Assembly (NCBI GenBank): GCA_963782055.1
Contig: CAWAIF010000003.1
Coordinates: 992,001 to 1,056,000 of the forward strand
From: an uncultured delta proteobacterium
GTDB taxonomy: Bacteria > Myxococcota_A > Polyangia > Polyangiales > Polyangiaceae
Length of the DNA: 64,000 bases
Direction of reading: 5' to 3'
How positions within the stretch are numbered: position 1 is the stretch's first letter; each line of letters begins with the position of its first letter. Below are positions 49,520-59,872 of this stretch, one piece after another. The translations under genes were made by a program, and so were the position numbers. The notes under the pieces are model-generated. The model was not told the origin of the DNA and did no database searches. It saw only the letters and a program-made list of their open reading frames with translations.

Positions 49520-50839
<1,320 letters not shown>

Positions 50840-50906: not shown

Positions 50907-51926
50907 TCAGCGGCCGGGGAAGTCGTCCGTCGAGATGGTGTTCACCGTCACCTCGGTGTGGTCGTCGCTCGGCCACTCTTCCCGCACGACGAGGCGGCTG
51001 GGGCGGTCGCGCGGGGCGTTGCCCATGACCTGACAGACCTTGCGCCACTCCTCCAGCGCCTCGCGCGCCAGCCGGAAGCGCCGCTCGCGGTCGCGCGCCA
51101 TCATCCGCTCCAGAAATCGCTCGATCGCCTGCGGCCACTCGTCGCCGGTCGTGGCGGCGAGCGATGGCGCCTCGCGGTCCAGCTTGAGCGCGATGAGGGT
51201 GAGGGCGTTGGAGCCCTCGAAGGGGAGGCGGCCGGTGAGCGCGCGGAAGGCCACGGCGCCCAGGGCGTAGAGATCCGCCCGCTCGTCGACCCGCGCCGAC
51301 CCCCGCACCTGCTCCGGCGCCATGTAGGCGAAGCTGCCGAGCGTCGCGTCGAAGGCGGTGAGGGAGGGCTCGCTCGACTTCTTGCCCTGCCGCCGGAGCT
51401 TGGAGATGCCGAAATCCAGGATGCGCGTGCGCTCCTCGACCTCCCCGGCGGCGACCTGCCTGGCGGTGAGCTGGCGGCGCTCGATGTAGAGGTTGGCCGG
51501 CTTGATGTCGCGGTGGATGACGCCGGCGGCGTGCGCGGCCATCAGGCCCTGCGTGGCGTCGTCGACGATGGGCGCCACGTCGGCGAAGGAGAGGTACTGC
51601 TCGCGCCGGAGCCGTTCGTCCAGGCCCTCGCCCTCCAGCCGCTCGAAGGCGATCCACAGGCGGCCGGTGCGGTCCTTCCCCGCGCCCAGGATGCCGGCGA
51701 CGTACGGCGACTTGATGTGCGCGGCGATGGAGGACTCGCGCTGGAAGCGGGCGACGAGATCGGGATCCTGCGCCGCGCGGTCGTGCAGCACCTTGAGGGC
51801 CACCTTCTCGCCCGCCTTGCCGTCTGCGGCGTAGACCTCTCCCATGCCGCCGTGGCCGATGAGGCGGCGGACCTTGTAGATGCCACCGATGGTGGATCCG
51901 ACGAGCGTGCCGCTGTCGGCGCCCAT
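50907..51926 (-). CDS. Cytoplasmic Ser/Thr protein kinase
   Basis: IGHGGMGEVY, VALK, HRDIKPAN, DFGISK, YMAPE; no TM; Thr-rich tail. Confidence 0.92.
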   Translation of the reverse strand: MGADSGTLVGSTIGGIYKVRRLIGHGGMGEVYAADGKAGEKVALKVLHDRAAQDPDLVARFQRESSIAAHIKSPYVAGILGAGKDRTGRLWIAFERLEGEGLDERLRREQYLSFADVAPIVDDATQGLMAAHAAGVIHRDIKPANLYIERRQLTARQVAAGEVEERTRILDFGISKLRRQGKKSSEPSLTAFDATLGSFAYMAPEQVRGSARVDERADLYALGAVAFRALTGRLPFEGSNALTLIALKLDREAPSLAATTGDEWPQAIERFLERMMARDRERRFRLAREALEEWRKVCQVMGNAPRDRPSRLVVREEWPSDDHTEVTVNTISTDDFPGR

Positions 51927-52087
51927 GCCTCGTGAACGATATCACGGGGGTCATGGGAGCGCGCGTACAACCGCCGGGCCGCGGCCACGGGGCCGGCGCC
52001 GCGGCGAGCCGCCGCCAGCCCCCGCGGGCGCGGGGCCTCACGTCGTTCTGGCCAGGCCGGACCGCGGCGCATATCTTGGCCTCTACC

Positions 52088-52492
52088 ATGCGCAACGTGA
52101 AGGACGTCGAGGCCTACCTGGAGAAGCTGAATCGGCAGTTCTCGGCGGTCGAGGACCAGCCGGGCACTTTCGTGATCGCGTCGGTGGACGGCAAGCCGCC
52201 CATCGCCGTTCGCGTCGACACGCCCCTCGTCGTACTGCGCGTGCACATCGGGGACGTGTCCAAGGCCGACGGCCCCGGGCTGACGGCCCTCTTCAAGCGC
52301 CTCCTGCAGCTCAACGCCGGGGAGCTCGTGCACGCCAGCTATGGCCTGGAGGGAGAGCGCATCGTCCTCTCCGCCGCGCTGGAGCTGGAGAACCTGGACT
52401 TCAACGAGATCGAGGCGACGCTGGACGAGATGGACATCGCCCTCGCGGAGCAGGTCCCCGAGCTGTCCGAGCTCTCCAAGAAGGCTTCGTAG
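52088..52492 (+). CDS. CesT/YbjN-like (type III chaperone fold) small acidic protein
   Basis: 134 aa; LFKRLLQLNA..LVHASYGLEGERIVLS..LELENLDFNE pattern; directly upstream of pspA. Confidence 0.65.
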   Translation: MRNVKDVEAYLEKLNRQFSAVEDQPGTFVIASVDGKPPIAVRVDTPLVVLRVHIGDVSKADGPGLTALFKRLLQLNAGELVHASYGLEGERIVLSAALELENLDFNEIEATLDEMDIALAEQVPELSELSKKAS

Positions 52493-52525
52493 TCGTCCCC
52501 CTCACCGGTCCGACGGGAAAAATCG

Positions 52526-53356
52526 ATGGGAATTTTCAGCCGCCTCGCCCAGCTCATCAAGTCCAACATCAACGACCTGATCAGCAAGTCCGAAGACCCG
52601 GAGAAGATGCTCAACCAGGTCGTTCTGGACATGAACAACCAGCTCGTGGAGGCCAAGAAGCAGGTCGCCTCCTCGATCGCCGACGAGAAGCGCCTGGCGA
52701 AGCAGTGCGAGCAGGAGCAGGCCAACGCCGCGGAGTGGGAGCGCCGCGCGATGATGGCGCTCCGCGCGGGCAACGAGGAGCTCGCGCGCGAGGCGCTCAC
52801 GCGCAAGAAGGAGCACGACCAGCTCGCTGTCACCTTCAAGGAGCAGTGGCAGAAGCAGAAGGCCGCCGTCGAGAAGCTGAAGCAGGCGCTTCGCATGCTC
52901 AACGACAAGATCGAGGAGGCCAAGCGCAAGAAGAACGTCCTCGTCGCCCGGAAGAAGCGCGCGGAGGCACAGCGCGCCATCCAGGAGACGATGAGCGGCC
53001 TGAAGGACCAGAGCGCCTTCGAGACGTTCGATCGCATGTCGCAGAAGATCGACCAGATCGAGGCGGAGGCGGAGGCGGGCGAGGAGCTGGCGGAGGAGTA
53101 CACCGGCGACGTCCTCGCCTCGCAGTTCGCCAAGCTTGAGCGCACCGCTGGCGCCGACGACGAGCTGGAGGCGCTCAAGCGCAAGATGGGCATGCTCCCC
53201 GACGAGGGCCCCAAGCCCGCCGAGGAGGCCCCCGTCCAGGCTCGCGTCGAGGCGCCGGCCCCCAAGAAGGCCGCCAGCGAGCAGGACGAGCTCGCCGCCG
53301 CCCTGGAGGAGCTGGAGGCCGAGCAGCAGGCCGAACAGAAGAAGATGGGCCGCTGA
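52526..53356 (+). CDS. pspA: PspA/IM30 (ESCRT-III superfamily) protein with C-terminal extension
   Basis: MGIFSRLAQLIKSNINDLISKSEDPEKML, EELAREAL, FDRMSQKI, DDELEALK. Confidence 0.93.
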   Translation: MGIFSRLAQLIKSNINDLISKSEDPEKMLNQVVLDMNNQLVEAKKQVASSIADEKRLAKQCEQEQANAAEWERRAMMALRAGNEELAREALTRKKEHDQLAVTFKEQWQKQKAAVEKLKQALRMLNDKIEEAKRKKNVLVARKKRAEAQRAIQETMSGLKDQSAFETFDRMSQKIDQIEAEAEAGEELAEEYTGDVLASQFAKLERTAGADDELEALKRKMGMLPDEGPKPAEEAPVQARVEAPAPKKAASEQDELAAALEELEAEQQAEQKKMGR

Positions 53357-53359
53357 CGC

Positions 53360-56182
53360 GTGGCGAAGCCGGCTCACTCCGAGCGCGTCGAGGATCTGCT
53401 CGAGCGCCTCGCCGCTGATCCCGCCGCGGGCCTCGACGAGGGCGAGATCCAGAAGCGCCTCGTGCGCGACGGGCCGAACGAGCTGCCCGCCCCGCCCAAG
53501 CCGAGCGCCATCAAGAAGTTCTTCGAGCAGTTCGCCAACCCCATCGTGGGGACGCTGCTCGTCGCGGCCGTCATCGCGCTGATCAACGGCGCCCGCAGCC
53601 ACCACCACTCCTTCCTCGTCCGCTACGGGGACGCGACCGCGATCCTGCTCATCGTGGCGCTCAACGCGGTGCTCGGCTTCTACCAGGAGCGCCGCGCGGA
53701 AGAGGCGCTGGACGCCCTCCAGAAGATGCAGACGCCCAACGCGCGCGTGCGCCGCGGGGGCGCCATCCGCGTGGTGCCCGCGACGCAGGTCGTCGTCGGC
53801 GACATCCTGGAGCTGGAGACCGGCGACGCGGTCGCGGCGGACGCCCGCCTGCTGCAGACCGCCAACGCCGCCACGGAGGAGAGCTCGCTCACCGGCGAGA
53901 GCGTCCCGGTGGGAAAGGACGCCAAGGCCGCCATCGCCGACGACGCCACGCTCGGCGACCGCGCGACGATGGTCTACGTCGGCACCAGCGTCGTGCGCGG
54001 CCGCGCGCGGGCGGTCGTCGTGGCCACCGGCAAGAACACCGAGATCGGCAAGCTCAACGCTCTCATCCAGAGCGCCGAGCAGGGGCGCACCCCGCTGGAG
54101 GAGAAGCTGGAGGTCTTCGGCAAGAAGATCCTCTGGACCTGCCTCGCCCTCTCCGCCCTGCTGCTCGTCCGCGGCCTCATCAAGGGCGACCGCACCTGGA
54201 ACGAGGTCCTGCTGGAGGCCGTCAGCCTCGCGGTGGCCGCCATCCCGGAGGGGCTGCCGGCGATCACCACCATCACCCTCGCCCTCGGCATGCAGCGCAT
54301 GGCGCGCCGCGGGGCGATCATCCGCAAGCTCGCCGCGGTGGAGACGCTCGGGTCGGCCACCGTCATCTGCTCCGACAAGACCGGCACCCTCACGCAGAAC
54401 GAGATGACGGTGCGCGAGGTCTACGCGAGCGACGTCACCTACGAGGTGACTGGCATCGGCTACGACCCGGACGGCAGCATCGTCGACCCCAAGGGGAGCG
54501 AGGTGCACGAGCCCGGCGGCACGCTGCGCCACCTGCTGGCCACCGTCGCCCTCTGCAACAACGCGCATCTGGAGCAGCAGGACGACGGCGGCTGGAAGGT
54601 CGCCGGCGACCCGACGGAGGGCGCGCTGCTCACTCTCGCGGCGAAGGGAGGCTTGCCCAAGGAGTCCATCGCGCCGAGCGTGCAGGTGCTCCGCGAGCTG
54701 CCCTTCGACAGCGACCGCAAGCGCATGACGGTGCTCGCCCTGGACGAGAACGGGCGGGAGGTCGTGCACGTCAAGGGCTCGGCGGACGTGGTGCTGCACA
54801 TGTGCTCCAGCTACGCCACCGACGACGGCATGCACACCCTGGACGACGCCCGGCGCGAGCAGTTCCTCGCCGAGGGCGAGCGCATGAGCCGGCTCTCGCT
54901 GCGCGTGCTCGCCGTCGCGCGCCGCGTCTTCCGCGAGGCGCAGCCGGTCGACCCGCCCGACGACGACCCCGCGTCGCTCCCCGAACCGGAGCCCTCCGGC
55001 GTGGACCGCCCCAGCCTGGAGCTGGAGGAGCAGCTCACCTTCCTGGGCCTGGTGGGGATGATGGACCCCCCGCGCGAGGGCGTGAAGGAGGCCGTGCGGG
55101 CGTGTCACGAGGCGCAGGTGCGCGCCGTCATGATCACCGGCGACCACAAGCTCACCGCCGTCGCCATCGCCCGCGACCTCGGCATCTGGGACGAGGGCTC
55201 CATCGCCCTCACCGGGTCCGAGCTGGAGAAGATGAGCGACGCGGAGCTCGCCGCGCGCGTCGACAGCACGCGCGTCTTCGCCCGCGTCACGGCCGAGCAG
55301 AAGCTCCGGATCGTGCGCGCCTTCAAGGCGGTCGGGCACGTGGTGGCGATGACGGGCGACGGGGTCAACGACGCGCCCGCCCTGCGCGAGGCGCACATCG
55401 GCGTGGCGATGGGCAAGGAGGGGACCGACGTCGCGCGCCAGGCCGCCGACATGGTCATCGCCGACGACAACTTCGCGACGATCGTCGACGCCGTGCGCGA
55501 GGGGCGCGCGATCTACCGCAACATCCAGAAGTTCATCTTCTTCCTGCTCTCCTCCAACGCCGGCCTGCTCGTCGCCGTCTTCGTCGCCTCCTTCCTGCCG
55601 CACCTGCCGCCGCTGACGCCCCTGATGATCCTGTGGATCAACCTGGTCACCAACGGCATGCCCGCCCTCGCCCTGGGCGTGGACCCGCCGGACCCGACGC
55701 AGATGGAGGAGCCCCCGCGCAAGGCGACCAGCGGCCTGCTGACGGCGCGCGAGTACCTCGGCATCGGCGCCGTCGGGCTCTGGATGGGTGCCGCCGCGCT
55801 CGTCTGCTACTTCTGGCCCTGGCCGGGGCAGGCCCACCCGCAGTGGCAGCCGCGCGCCATCGCCTTCTCCCTGCTGGCGCTCTCCCCGCTCTTCCATGCC
55901 TTCAACTGCCGATCGGCGAGCGCGTCCATCGCCAGGCTCCGGCCCTTCGTCTCCAAGCCGCTGGTGCTGGCGGTGGTGCTCTCGGCGGCGATCCACCTGG
56001 TGGCGGTGCTGGTCCCGGTCCTGCGTCCCGTCTTCCGCACCTTCCCGCTGACGGCCTACGAGTGGGGCGTCATGCTCGCGCTGTCCGCCTCCATCATCCC
56101 GGCGATCGAGCTGCTCAAGCTGGTCCAGCGGCGGGGGATGTTCGCGAGCAAGCTCGGCCCCCTTTCGCGCCGCCCGGGGTGA
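53360..56182 (+). CDS. P2A-like cation-translocating P-type ATPase with atypical ion site
   Basis: TGES, IPEGLP, DKTGTLT, KGS, MITGD, TGDGVNDAPAL. Confidence 0.93.
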   Translation: MAKPAHSERVEDLLERLAADPAAGLDEGEIQKRLVRDGPNELPAPPKPSAIKKFFEQFANPIVGTLLVAAVIALINGARSHHHSFLVRYGDATAILLIVALNAVLGFYQERRAEEALDALQKMQTPNARVRRGGAIRVVPATQVVVGDILELETGDAVAADARLLQTANAATEESSLTGESVPVGKDAKAAIADDATLGDRATMVYVGTSVVRGRARAVVVATGKNTEIGKLNALIQSAEQGRTPLEEKLEVFGKKILWTCLALSALLLVRGLIKGDRTWNEVLLEAVSLAVAAIPEGLPAITTITLALGMQRMARRGAIIRKLAAVETLGSATVICSDKTGTLTQNEMTVREVYASDVTYEVTGIGYDPDGSIVDPKGSEVHEPGGTLRHLLATVALCNNAHLEQQDDGGWKVAGDPTEGALLTLAAKGGLPKESIAPSVQVLRELPFDSDRKRMTVLALDENGREVVHVKGSADVVLHMCSSYATDDGMHTLDDARREQFLAEGERMSRLSLRVLAVARRVFREAQPVDPPDDDPASLPEPEPSGVDRPSLELEEQLTFLGLVGMMDPPREGVKEAVRACHEAQVRAVMITGDHKLTAVAIARDLGIWDEGSIALTGSELEKMSDAELAARVDSTRVFARVTAEQKLRIVRAFKAVGHVVAMTGDGVNDAPALREAHIGVAMGKEGTDVARQAADMVIADDNFATIVDAVREGRAIYRNIQKFIFFLLSSNAGLLVAVFVASFLPHLPPLTPLMILWINLVTNGMPALALGVDPPDPTQMEEPPRKATSGLLTAREYLGIGAVGLWMGAAALVCYFWPWPGQAHPQWQPRAIAFSLLALSPLFHAFNCRSASASIARLRPFVSKPLVLAVVLSAAIHLVAVLVPVLRPVFRTFPLTAYEWGVMLALSASIIPAIELLKLVQRRGMFASKLGPLSRRPG

Positions 56183-56198
56183 TCCTATCGTGGCAACG

Positions 56199-58268
56199 AT
56201 GCGTGTCGCGGCCATACGCGTGGTGGGTGTGCTCTTCACGGCCTTGCTGGCCGCGTGCGGTGGCGGGGCCGGCGCGAGCGGTGGGGCGAAGACGGGCGGG
56301 GCCTCCGGCGCCTCCGGTGACGTCTCCATCGGCGATCTCGCCTCCAGCCAGGGCGGCCTCACGTCGCTGGGCGGCGGCGACAACGCCGCGGTCCCCGATA
56401 CCGGCTACGCCGGCGCGCTCAAGGCGGACATCGTCTTGCCGGGCAGCCCGGTGAAGCTGGACGGCGTGCTCAAGGAGTGGCCGGCGCGCGTCGCGGCGAA
56501 GACCGTCGTGTCCGGCAAGCCCGCGCGCCTGGCCTTCGCGTGCGCCGTCCAGTACGACGCGCACCACGTCTACTTCGCCGGGGACGCCAACGACCCGCAG
56601 TTTTACCGCACGTCCCACTTCGGCGCGGACGAGGACCACGCCTCGCTCATCCTGGCGGTCCCCGGCGCGGGCGGCGCCCTGGTCGCGACCGAGGTCGGCT
56701 TCTTCGCGGGCAAGCCCGGCGAGTACGCCGGCGTCGTGCGCTACCTCTCCGGGCAGATGAAGGGCAAGGAGGTGCCCGGCAGCAAGATCGTCGAGGCGCC
56801 CACCGCGCACGGCTACTCCTTCGAGGCGTCGGTCCCGTGGTCCACCTTCCCCGGCACGCAGACCGTCCGCGTCGGCCTCCACGGCGTGGGCCGGTACTAC
56901 GATGGCACGAGCGCCGTCGTCGCGACGGGCGCGGGGGACGTGCACCACGCCGCGGACATGCCCGCCCTGGAGACCGAGCCGGAGCAGTCCCTCGTGGAGA
57001 GCTTCCTCGTGCCCAAGGGCCTGCTCGCCGCGACGCCCCGCGCCGACGTCTACGCCGACATCACCGGCGACGCGATGAAGGAGCGCATCACCGTCTTCGA
57101 CCGCTTCGTGACGATCGTCGGGCCGGGCTACCGCGGGGGCAAGGAGTTCTTCTTCCGCGATCTCGGCGCGGATCTGGTGCACCTGGACGCCCGCCCCATC
57201 ACCGGGCGCGGCAAGGACAATCTGCTCTTCCGCGTCCGCTTCGATGGGGAGGACCAGCGCGAGTGGGTGGAGGTCTGGAGCTTCCTCTCCGGCGCCGAGC
57301 CCACCACGACCTTCACCCACGAGATCCTGGTCTCCCAGGGAAGCAACCAGGTCGCCAACAGCGTGCACCTCGGCCACAAGACGATCGAGGTCGGCTACGA
57401 GCCGGCGAAGGGCTGGACCGCGGCGACCTACCAGCGCCCCGTGGCGACGGACGTGGAGCCGGTGCTCTTGCCCTGGGGCCCCACCAGGTCGCAGCTCTTC
57501 CGCTTCGACGGATCCAAGTTCCGGAAGGTGAAGGAGGTGGCGCAGAAGGCCACCGGCCCCGCGCCCACCGGGTCGGTCTCGGTCGGCCACCGCCCCACCA
57601 TTCGCCGCGTCGAGCCGCCGACCCCGGTCGTGCATCACGACACCAATCTCTCCAAGGAGCTGCTCGCGCGCTACCGCGCCGACCGCGGCGTCCCGGCGAG
57701 CGTGAAGTCGCGCTTCGACATGTCGGTGCAGCTCACCGGCGACCCGCGTCCGGAGCGCGTGGTGCTCGTCGGGCGCGACGTGGTGGTCTTCGGCCCCGGC
57801 TTCAAGGGCGGCACCGCGTACGCGTACATCACCCTCTCGCAGTTCGCCGACCCGGCGGACATCCAGGACATCCACGCGCGGGATCTCACCGGGGACGGCG
57901 ACGCCGACCTGGTGGTGCGCGGCCTGCGCCACGTGACGGCCGCCGGCAGCGGCAAGATCGACATGGACGTGCTCTTCGTCTACCAGGTCAAGAGCGACTC
58001 CCTCGCGCGCATCTTCGGCATCGAGACGGGCCGCCAGCAGGGGCGCAAGCGCATCCAGGGGATGGTGCAGTTCATCCCCGGGCCGGGCGGCAAGGGCTTC
58101 ACCGTGGACGTGCGGCCGGGGCGCGCCGTCGGGTGGACAGAGAAGACCTACCCGTGGGCGCAGGACCCTCCGGGCGCGGGCCCGCTGGAGCCCCTCCTCC
58201 TGCCGTGGGGGAGCCCGAATCACTTGCAGTATACATACAACGGGAGCGCCTTCGCGCAGAGCCCCTGA
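56199..58268 (+). CDS. Lipoprotein with a CBM9/DOMON-like domain and two tandem repeated domains
   Basis: Lipobox LAAC; VKLDGVLKEW..QYDAHHVYFA..GYSFEASVPW; DLTGDGDADLVV. Confidence 0.65.
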   Translation: MRVAAIRVVGVLFTALLAACGGGAGASGGAKTGGASGASGDVSIGDLASSQGGLTSLGGGDNAAVPDTGYAGALKADIVLPGSPVKLDGVLKEWPARVAAKTVVSGKPARLAFACAVQYDAHHVYFAGDANDPQFYRTSHFGADEDHASLILAVPGAGGALVATEVGFFAGKPGEYAGVVRYLSGQMKGKEVPGSKIVEAPTAHGYSFEASVPWSTFPGTQTVRVGLHGVGRYYDGTSAVVATGAGDVHHAADMPALETEPEQSLVESFLVPKGLLAATPRADVYADITGDAMKERITVFDRFVTIVGPGYRGGKEFFFRDLGADLVHLDARPITGRGKDNLLFRVRFDGEDQREWVEVWSFLSGAEPTTTFTHEILVSQGSNQVANSVHLGHKTIEVGYEPAKGWTAATYQRPVATDVEPVLLPWGPTRSQLFRFDGSKFRKVKEVAQKATGPAPTGSVSVGHRPTIRRVEPPTPVVHHDTNLSKELLARYRADRGVPASVKSRFDMSVQLTGDPRPERVVLVGRDVVVFGPGFKGGTAYAYITLSQFADPADIQDIHARDLTGDGDADLVVRGLRHVTAAGSGKIDMDVLFVYQVKSDSLARIFGIETGRQQGRKRIQGMVQFIPGPGGKGFTVDVRPGRAVGWTEKTYPWAQDPPGAGPLEPLLLPWGSPNHLQYTYNGSAFAQSP

Positions 58269-58297: not shown

Positions 58298-59872
58298 CTA
58301 CCTCCTGTTCAGGAACGGATCCGGCCCGAGCCCATCGCCGATGCCGCCCGCGTGACCGCCGCCCTGCTTGACGTGGCTCCCGCCGCTCTTGTGGACGCTG
58401 GGGACGGGGACCAGCTTGACGAAGCGCGACGCGTCGGTGGACGCGACGGTGACCGTCTGCGAGACGTACCCCCCGCGCGCCACCAGCAGCGTGGCGGACT
58501 CGCCGTCGGCGAGCGAGAGCACGACCGGGTTGTGGAGCACCTCGCCGTCGCGGGTGACCTTCGCGTCGGGGGGCTGCACGGCCACCGCGATGGCGTGCGT
58601 CGGCGCGGCGACGGGGGCGGTGGCGCTCGGCGGCGGCGCAGGCGCGCTCGACGCCACCGGCGTCGTGGTGACGGCGGCCGACGCCTTGTCCGCCGGATCC
58701 CGCCGGGCGTCTGCCTCCGAGGCGCTGGAGCGCGCGAAGATGGCGACGACGATCCCAATCGCCGTCAGCACGCCCGCCGCGCCGGCGACGAGCGGCCACC
58801 GGGTGCGCCGCGAGCGTCGCTGCGGCGAGCCCGGCACCGCCGGCGGCATGATGCTGGAGCGGAAGTAGTCCGCCGGGACGTTGAAGCCGCCGGAGCGCGC
58901 CATCATCTCGGCGACGGCCTCGGGCATGGTGCCCTTTTCCAGCCTCTCCAGGTCCTCCACCAGCGCGTCCATCGACTCGTAGCGCTGGTCCACCTTCTTG
59001 GAGAGGCACTTGAGGACGACGGCGTCCAGCCCGGAGGGGATCTCCTGCGGCGCGGGCACCAGCGCGCGCATGGGGACCGGCGCCTTGTACATGTGCATCG
59101 TCAGGATGCCCATGAAGTTCTCGGCGTCGAAGGGGACCTTCCCTGCCGCCATCTCGTAGAGCATCACGCCGAGCGAGTAGATGTCGGTCTTGTGGTTGAC
59201 CGCGGCGCCGGCGGCCTGCTCCGGCGACATGTAGTGCGGCGTCCCGAAGACGCTACCCGCCTTGGTGAGCTTGGCGGTCTCCCCGCTCACCTTCGCGATG
59301 CCGAAGTCCAGGATCTTGACGAAGTCCTTCTCCTGCCCGCGGGCGATGAGCATCACGTTGTCCGGCTTGAGATCCCGGTGGACGATGCCCGCGGCGTGCG
59401 CGGCGGAGAGCCCCTGGGCGATCTGCTTGGCGATGTGCAGGATCCGGGACACCGGGAGCGGGCGCGCCTCCTCCATCACGGTGGAGAGCGGCTTGCCGTC
59501 CAGGTACTCCATGATGAAGTACGTCGCGCCGTCGGGGAGCACGCCGAAGTCGGAGATGTCGATGATGTGCGGGTTGCCGATGGCGGACGCGGCGCGCGCC
59601 TCCTGGAGGAAGCGGTCGGTCACCTCCTTGTCGCGCGCCATCTCCCCGCGCAGCACCTTGATGGCCACCCTCTTGTCGATCAGCTTGTGCTTGCCCCGGT
59701 AGACGATGCCCATGCCGCCCTGGCCGAGCACGCCGTCCACCTGGTAGCGGCCGTCGATCACCTTGCCGACGTACGGGTCGACCTGGGCCGGAGGGTCGGT
59801 CACCTCGAGCAGGTCCACCTCCGAAGGAGAGCGCGTCGGAACATCCGCGCCGAACTGTTTGGTGTCGCCCAT
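58298..59872 (-). CDS. Membrane-anchored Ser/Thr protein kinase with PEGA-like tail
   Basis: LGQGGMGIVY, VAIK, HRDLKPDN, DFGIAK, GTPHYMSPE; TM; VQPPDAKV..RGGY. Confidence 0.93.
   Translation of the reverse strand: MGDTKQFGADVPTRSPSEVDLLEVTDPPAQVDPYVGKVIDGRYQVDGVLGQGGMGIVYRGKHKLIDKRVAIKVLRGEMARDKEVTDRFLQEARAASAIGNPHIIDISDFGVLPDGATYFIMEYLDGKPLSTVMEEARPLPVSRILHIAKQIAQGLSAAHAAGIVHRDLKPDNVMLIARGQEKDFVKILDFGIAKVSGETAKLTKAGSVFGTPHYMSPEQAAGAAVNHKTDIYSLGVMLYEMAAGKVPFDAENFMGILTMHMYKAPVPMRALVPAPQEIPSGLDAVVLKCLSKKVDQRYESMDALVEDLERLEKGTMPEAVAEMMARSGGFNVPADYFRSSIMPPAVPGSPQRRSRRTRWPLVAGAAGVLTAIGIVVAIFARSSASEADARRDPADKASAAVTTTPVASSAPAPPPSATAPVAAPTHAIAVAVQPPDAKVTRDGEVLHNPVVLSLADGESATLLVARGGYVSQTVTVASTDASRFVKLVPVPSVHKSGGSHVKQGGGHAGGIGDGLGPDPFLNRR

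Follow-up and report, generated by a model that had tools for sequence, protein, structure and literature searches.

What is a P-type ATPase with an altered ion-binding site doing directly behind a gene for PspA, and do the two proteins belong together? The question is raised by three genes in a stretch of 64,000 nucleotides (hereafter the window) from an uncultured delta proteobacterium of the Polyangiaceae (Myxococcota_A; assembly GCA_963782055.1, contig CAWAIF010000003.1, positions 992,001 to 1,056,000 of the forward strand), whose genome is available as three contigs (7.58 Mb, 97% complete). A sequence-only reading of the window had proposed that a CesT-like chaperone, PspA and the pump make up a new envelope-stress module, but a dedicated unit of this kind is not supported by comparison with relatives: the link between pspA and the pump gene is restricted to a single lineage, and adjacency there is at the level expected of neighbouring genes. 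What we see is a neighbourhood limited to one lineage, in which an unusual pump lies next to a dyad that was already known. The account that we prefer, with about an even chance of being right, is that a known CesT/Tir–PspA pair lies beside an intact, one-carboxylate, P2A-derived pump, which is likely to be an exporter of monovalent cations and probably a neighbour of PspA rather than a required partner.

The three open reading frames (ORFs) share one orientation on the forward strand, with intergenic gaps of 33 bp and then 3 bp. The first (cesT, 52088–52492, 134 aa) encodes a CesT/Tir-like chaperone (CesT_Tir_1, PF22550, 106 bits against a cut-off of 27, E 1.5e-30); the second (pspA, 52526–53356, 276 aa) a PspA/Vipp1-family ESCRT-III-like protein (PspA_IM30, PF04012, 183 bits, E 7.9e-54); and the third (53360–56182, 940 aa, GTG start) a P2A-derived P-type ATPase, recognized by its E1-E2 and Cation_ATPase Pfam families and by AlphaFold2 and Foldseek. 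Coordinates and Pfam families thus agree with the identities, co-orientation and gaps first reported, and since the trio recurs in relatives it is more than a chance assembly. Its first two genes are already known as a pair. In a set comprising the best 80 of 227 pspA-anchored loci, cesT is directly upstream of pspA in 79, the lone exception beginning at a contig end, and the pair corresponds to the published CesT/Tir–PspA dyad, which according to Ravi et al. (2024, PMC11237479) either stands alone or forms the centre of larger operons; this agrees with the earlier remark that CesT-like genes are known neighbours of pspA. Binding between the partners in one such dyad, BacA and BacB, is cited in the available text of PMC10948618 only as unpublished, and the cesT product of the window has no significant sequence match in the PDB.

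The pump is the more unusual component. Its AlphaFold2 model (pLDDT 92.4, pTM 0.89) has A, N and P domains and a ten-helix membrane domain, Foldseek ranks SPCA1 and SERCA as the structures most like it (TM-score up to 0.87 for SERCA), and its catalytic motifs (DKTGT, TGES and GDGVND) are intact, PEGL also being kept. Four acidic residues make up the transport sites of SERCA (E309, E771, D800 and E908; PMC7313052), and in alignments to SERCA2 and SPCA1 only the equivalent of E309 remains. This is E297 of the PEGLP motif (54248–54250, forward strand, as are the following codons), which is 100% conserved in the clade of pumps described below. E771 is lost, the position in M5 being taken by L736 (55565–55567; L, I or A in clade members); D800 in M6 is replaced by N765 (55652–55654); and the E908 position in M8 is taken by P843 (55886–55888), which aligns to the M8 aspartate of SPCA1, itself placed at the E908 position in a preprint on LMCA1 (bioRxiv 10.1101/2020.06.23.166462). 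The altered ion site noticed at the outset is thus borne out as E771L, D800N and E908P, with E297 retained. N733, N761 and T764 are kept in comparison with SERCA2 and SPCA1, the clade has no further conserved acidic residue in M5, M6 or M8, and two small polar residues, S265 in M3 and T303 in M4, are conserved specifically within it. The protein scores below the cut-offs of the NCBIfam P2A models (IIA1, 659.9 vs 703.4; IIA2, 656.9 vs 798.3) and of the P2D model IID (496 vs 645 bits). In P3A H+-ATPases the M6 aspartate is the proton site; the P3A model gives 421 bits against a cut-off of 616, and the pump has N765 at that position.

Pumps with this signature show no sign of decay. All 38 family loci that cover M5–M8 carry it. 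Of the 150 best representatives, 46 combine Asn at D800 with a residue other than Glu at E771, and 91 have canonical E771 and D800, with Gln or Glu at E908. In trees built with FastTree on BLAST-projected rows, from which the three signature columns had been removed, the altered pumps formed one clade (support 1.0, with sequence P0058 outside it, and 0.986 in a second tree). The ratio of nonsynonymous to synonymous substitution rates (dN/dS) was 0.25–0.45 overall and 0.05–0.14 in the site helices M4, M5, M6 and M8 (six pairs). The clade is spread through the class and is under purifying selection; a decaying pump, which we had considered, is rejected on these values together with the intact motifs. 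Wider in the phylum, 46 of 401 genomes contain the M6 motif, and the 17 loci retrieved from outside the order comprised 14 of another D800N family, two without a pump and one clade member. This separate P2 family with Asn at D800, typically WLNLVTNGIQDVALAF, is scattered across the phylum (L102, L104, L112, L117, L125–L129, L132–L134 and L316–L322); most members retain the glutamate of M5, and an additional Asp (or His) stands four residues further along. We found no paper on a pump clade with the E771L/D800N/E908P signature in a search that left subscription journals mostly outside. In this clade nature has, in effect, run an experiment on the ion site that is best studied among P-type ATPases, leaving a SERCA-like scaffold with only E309, and the identity of its substrate would put to the test how many carboxylates are needed at least and how ion specificity shifts. 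The clade is the part of the locus worth testing.

How firmly is this pump tied to pspA? Several of the genomes used below are the same records as loci in the other sets, and close kin are not independent; the counts should therefore be taken as a pattern, with no statistical weight of their own. The pump lies within 7 kb in 50 of the 80 pspA-anchored loci, all in the 66 core loci (defined by a CesT identity of at least 44%, independently of the pump): there, it is found at up to 450 bp in 34, behind inserts in 16, and is missing over at least 4 kb read in seven, the remaining nine being too short, which leaves 57 informative. None of the 14 outer loci has it (11 read for at least 4 kb). Seen from the other side, in a sample of 80 of at least 120 ATPase-anchored metagenome loci (30 too short to judge), pspA is upstream in 29 of 36 informative loci whose pump is at least 56% identical, and in none of 14 below 56%, two of which fall outside the clade. 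Among 121 genomes of the class, a pspA orthologue is present in 74, the pump in 20 and both in 15, but only in five of these 15, all of the window's family, are the two adjacent. The signature is present in each of the 14 pumps from other families, and neither pspA nor cesT lies upstream of any of them (13 read for at least 1.8 kb); likewise, pspA is beside the pump in none of 12 distant clade members (one read only 1.1 kb upstream), and four genomes (G038, G040, G025 and G037) have both genes, unlinked. One further family shares the link (G034). A single subclade, made up of the Polyangiaceae and their near relatives, thus contains the link (support 0.785), and since the signature occurs without pspA in other families, the altered ion site predates the link. 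The synteny on which the proposed module depended therefore holds within the Polyangiaceae and close kin and fails in the more distant families compared. Within the linked subclade, L241 has a PspA only 38% identical, which raised the idea that a second type of PspA had been recruited independently; since the second PspA of the source genome does not have it among its best matches, we rejected this and read it as a diverged orthologue. The gene for that second PspA is itself unlinked (G000:C3:4935093-4935800, L014); it is flanked by a Ser/Thr kinase gene on one side and by an ORF of 352 aa without Pfam matches on the other.

Even within the family, adjacency of pspA and pump is at background level. 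The core figures, 34 of 57 adjacent and 50 of 57 within 7 kb, compare with 22 and 25 of 32 co-oriented orthologue pairs, taken from 40 stretches of 20 kb spaced evenly over five genomes of the family (one of which, G194, gave no pairs); six of eight divergent pairs were also kept, and of 63 informative core loci 56 retain the kinase gene divergent from cesT. In five of six genomes of the same genus, 1–4 kb separates pspA from the pump (about 85 bp in the sixth), so that the 3-bp junction of the window is atypical for the genus; the inserts are unrelated genes, some of them antisense.

The best surviving alternative to mere neighbourhood is a lineage-specific functional module without direct binding, in which selection has kept co-expression and the pump restores the ion gradient during PspA-mediated repair. 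We find this doubtful, though some observations do weigh on its side and against our own account. In those 29 of 36 close metagenome loci the two genes stay linked at pump identities as low as about 57%, and 19 of the 29 have short junctions; our background is small (32 pairs, four genomes) and itself enriched for true operons; and in G130 (1.8 Mb) and G042 the adjacency of pspA and ATPase is kept although cesT was not found, two cases that count as one event because the lineages are sisters. PspA has, moreover, been linked to other transporters (PMC11237479). Against such a module, the link has a single origin and so never recurred independently; its retention equals both the background and that of the divergent kinase; inserts or outright absence of the pump affect 16 and seven, respectively, of the 57 informative loci; and even inside the subclade there are pumps without pspA (seven of 36; also G145). 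In the G130 locus (L121, G130:C1:280300-294400) the flanking kinase and FHA–sigma-54 genes appear fragmented and the lipoprotein shortened; that the link is retained in such reduced genomes also counts for a module. The G042 locus is L106, and this genome too is small.

Transcription signals bear on the same point. A sigma-70-type −10-like hexamer, TATCTT (52072–52077, forward strand), lies 10 nt before the cesT ATG and would leave a short leader or none. Among 77 relatives, TAnnnT occurs 5–11 nt before this ATG in 26 (three in shuffles) and TTGnnn followed at 16–18 nt by TAnnnT in 29 (one shuffled); a consensus promoter scanner returned no site. Because such a signal precedes cesT and almost never pspA (one of 79 genes), the two are probably read as one transcript. 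Ahead of the pump, a −10-like hexamer 6–11 nt before an in-frame start was present in 21 of 41 long-gap genome loci and in none of 28 short-gap loci (both sets), against a genome-wide background of 12.6% of 5047 called genes, a share which suggests that many transcripts in this genome may be leaderless. One free-living, cultured relative with such an element before the pump is Labilithrix luteola (L034), where the gap is about 130 bp. The result was not replicated by the strict test in the metagenome set (two of 22 at gaps of at least 40, two of 10 at gaps of at least 70), and a looser motif that did find eight of 10 there (background 14.2%) was picked after seeing the data; the signals are therefore kept as no more than partial evidence for a separate pump promoter in long-gap loci. 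No terminator is predicted between pspA and the pump on the forward strand, and co-expression of the two in the Polyangiaceae lineage is possible. We picture the history as follows. A single event in the ancestor of the Polyangiaceae and their close kin probably placed the pump behind pspA, and it has since been a neighbour, sometimes co-transcribed; at the 3-bp junction of the window, the spacer and the pump's own −10 element have likely been lost, as a result of which the pump in this genome would be read from the cesT promoter. The chaperone, for its part, would bind PspA and tune its polymerization, and PspA polymers would patch the inner membrane, an activity established for the family.

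What might the pump carry? In the mechanism that we favour, it would pass through a phosphoenzyme formed at DKTGT, with a single ion held at site II by E297, N761, N765 and backbone oxygens of M4, site I being closed off by L736 and P843, as judged from the alignment; the exported ion would be singly charged, Na+ or H+/K+. We give a monovalent cation roughly half of our confidence, the argument being one of charge: loss of the D800-equivalent aspartate disables PMR1 (D778A; PMC5143377) and largely disables SPCA1 (D742Y; PMC6712213), and LMCA1 retains it as Asp720 (bioRxiv 10.1101/2020.06.23.166462). Transport of Ca2+ or Mn2+ through a low-affinity single site, with Asn in place of Asp, is a tentative second choice. 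In family models and in structure the pump comes closest to P2A Ca2+ pumps; the equivalents of E309, N768, N796 and T799 are retained; none of three other aligned P2/P3-type pumps of this genome has a SERCA-like site; and some members of the clade are named Ca2+-transporting ATPases, by annotation only. On one view, D800N abolishes transport by SERCA. A report that the substitution only halves its turnover (PMC7890198) is at odds with this and, with the reported Ca2+ exporter CtpF, which has Ala at D800 while keeping E771 and E908 (PMC6879984), speaks against our preference for a monovalent ion. So does the fact that no neighbour points to Na+; the 51 genes flanking unlinked pumps include neither a Na+ nor a Ca2+ transporter. 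Against Ca2+ or Mn2+ stand the shortfall on both P2A models, the M6 aspartate common to all the single-site Ca2+ pumps compared (Asp720 of LMCA1, D778 of PMR1, D742 of SPCA1) and the probability that one carboxylate would compensate a divalent ion poorly.

There is a small chance that the de-acidified pocket handles a lipid or some other non-metal substrate, in a flippase-like role that would suit membrane repair. The disappearance of three acidic residues and the conservation of S265 and T303 would fit, but the M4 glutamate is fully conserved and the fold matches P2A. In P4 flippases that glutamate is replaced, and the P4 model scores 113 bits against a cut-off of 431. We give a similarly small share to the idea that the protein is a sensor or has some other function.

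The 51 genes flanking unlinked pumps include those for USP (four), CBS, hemerythrin, FixH, BrkB (two) and S49 (two) proteins. In another branch, a Roadblock/LC7 gene and a small-GTPase-like gene, which we take to be an mglB/mglA-like pair, lie just downstream of the pump (L095:6959-8136, L100, L103 and L181). Unlinked clade members L107, L209, L233, L259, L101, L110 and L114 adjoin genes for USP, CBS, hemerythrin, FixH or cbb3-oxidase, and gene types of the USP, CBS, hemerythrin and cbb3-oxidase kinds are reported from the low-oxygen NmpR regulon of Myxococcus xanthus (PMC11841059). This suggests, as a lead only, a low-oxygen context for basal or unlinked members.

Stronger versions of the partnership fare worse. 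That the pump represents an undescribed one-carboxylate P2 subfamily with a new substrate (as a bacterial Na+/H+ pump built like SERCA, or as a lipid mover), recruited by the Polyangiaceae as the ATP-driven arm of an ESCRT-III-like CesT–PspA repair module replacing PspBC, seems to us improbable. The sequence-only reading had noted that pspB-, pspC- and liaI-like genes are lacking. PspB (PF06667) and PspC (PF04024) were indeed not found in the 97%-complete genome G000, in a search whose controls were detected and which did not extend to LiaI, but a pspA gene without adjacent pspBC is the usual state in most phyla (Popp et al., PMC9239133). The weakest reading, that PspA binds the pump as a membrane receptor or effector in place of PspBC or LiaI, can point to the missing PspB and PspC and to the 3-bp gap, but is very improbable given that 59 of the 74 genomes with a pspA orthologue have no pump match with this query in the class-wide sample, that five of 20 pump-bearing genomes have no pspA orthologue at the cut-off used, that the altered site predates the link and that pspA without classical partners is common. 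For the same reasons, and with adjacency at background, a role of the pump as dedicated membrane partner is not supported.

Downstream, the gene for a predicted lipoprotein (lipobox LAAC; 56199–58268, forward strand) begins with an ATG 16 bp past the ATPase stop, where the earlier reading had placed it, and has its own −10-like hexamer (TATCGT, at 56186) 7 nt before that ATG. A Pfam search gave no match; it resembles protein clusters of a Myxococcota family (Atlas feature match 0.91–0.92) with CBM9_1 in 46–70% and FG-GAP in 17–62%. A gene of this CBM9/FG-GAP-like kind lies directly after pspA in pump-less loci L032, L066, L074, L084, L090 and L188, so that, as a candidate partner of PspA, the lipoprotein ranks level with the pump. 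Upstream, divergent from cesT and kept alongside it across the family, are a Ser/Thr kinase gene (Pkinase; 50907–51926, reverse strand) and a Pfam-recognized FHA–sigma-54 activator gene (49520–50839, reverse strand); a second kinase gene (58298–59872, reverse strand) is downstream and convergent. Control of the locus by phosphorylation through these flanking kinases is possible, as a candidate form of regulation only. Control of a sigma-54/PspF-like kind by the divergent FHA activator was considered and rejected: none of the 77 regions upstream of cesT has a strict sigma-54 −24/−12 motif, and the activator scores 226 bits on the PspF model, against a cut-off of 444. Loci from outer lineages repeatedly have the gene of a small zinc-ribbon protein (PF09723) after cesT–pspA (seven loci, L076–L093, e.g. 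L089:7854-8174).

How, finally, does the locus compare with known systems? Classical Psp systems are set apart by three things not found here: PspB and PspC, a sigma-54 promoter with a divergent PspF, and a PspA equivalog score (165 bits on TIGR02977, cut-off 243); the score on the LiaH model is also far below its cut-off (93 vs 380). The closest named relatives of this PspA are from Polyangiaceae, and the closest solved structures to its profile are those of Vipp1 (E 2e-62; PspA entries only 1e-30 and 2.6e-23). It shares with Vipp1/IM30 a C-terminal extension, said to set Vipp1 apart from PspA (PMC7619361), here an RV[EQD]A-like motif followed by an acidic predicted helix, conserved in the tails of 76 of 77 relatives (L070 being frameshifted); the host, however, is non-photosynthetic, and the likeness of the tails is one of features and does not imply homology. 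This tail (window 53186–53356) is a candidate binding site for the chaperone.

The pump resembles the single-site P2A Ca2+-ATPases LMCA1 and SPCA1/PMR1 in its ten-helix fold, its PEGL glutamate and its loss of the E771 glutamate, SPCA1 being among its best sequence and structure matches; it lacks the E771 and E908 pair of two-site P2A pumps, as LMCA1 also does. LMCA1 and SPCA1 are nevertheless described as keeping the M6 aspartate and having Arg or Asp at the E908 position, where the pump clade has Asn and Pro, respectively. CtpF of Mycobacterium tuberculosis (PMC6879984) is likewise a bacterial P2 pump without D800, and the reported low-oxygen regulation of ctpF recalls the USP, CBS, hemerythrin and cbb3-oxidase genes beside basal clade members, but it has Ala at D800 and retains E771 and E908. 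The P2D ENA Na+/K+ pumps (PMC10779151) serve as a functional analogy, since they too are P2 pumps, their site II is less acidic and they transport monovalent cations; they differ in having IPAS in M4 and acidic E818 and D860 in M5 and M6, whereas the clade has IPEG/PEGL in M4 and nothing acidic in M5 or M6.

We found no paper joining PspA, CesT and a P-type ATPase, again with subscription journals mostly outside the search. The accessible parts of PMC11237479 and one text supplement contain no P-type ATPase, although the web tables of Ravi et al. may list this neighbourhood; nor is the trio mentioned in the accessible parts of a 2023 review (PMC10654040) or of Popp et al. (PMC9239133), whose external data may list it. 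Among the nearest known systems is the CesT/Tir–PspA dyad itself (including yjfI–yjfJ of Escherichia coli and bacA–bacB of Pseudomonas aeruginosa; PMC10948618), which likewise has a CesT/Tir-like gene directly before pspA and occurs alone or in bigger operons with membrane proteins and lipoproteins. Because the arrangement is that of a single lineage, the link to pspA matters less than the sequence-only reading held, yet it does add a new neighbourhood to the dyad: the larger operons described for it are of the band-7/AAA+, spermidine-synthase-like and ATP-grasp/K+ channel kinds (PMC11237479), whereas here it adjoins genes for a P2A-like pump, a CBM9/FG-GAP-like lipoprotein and Ser/Thr kinases.

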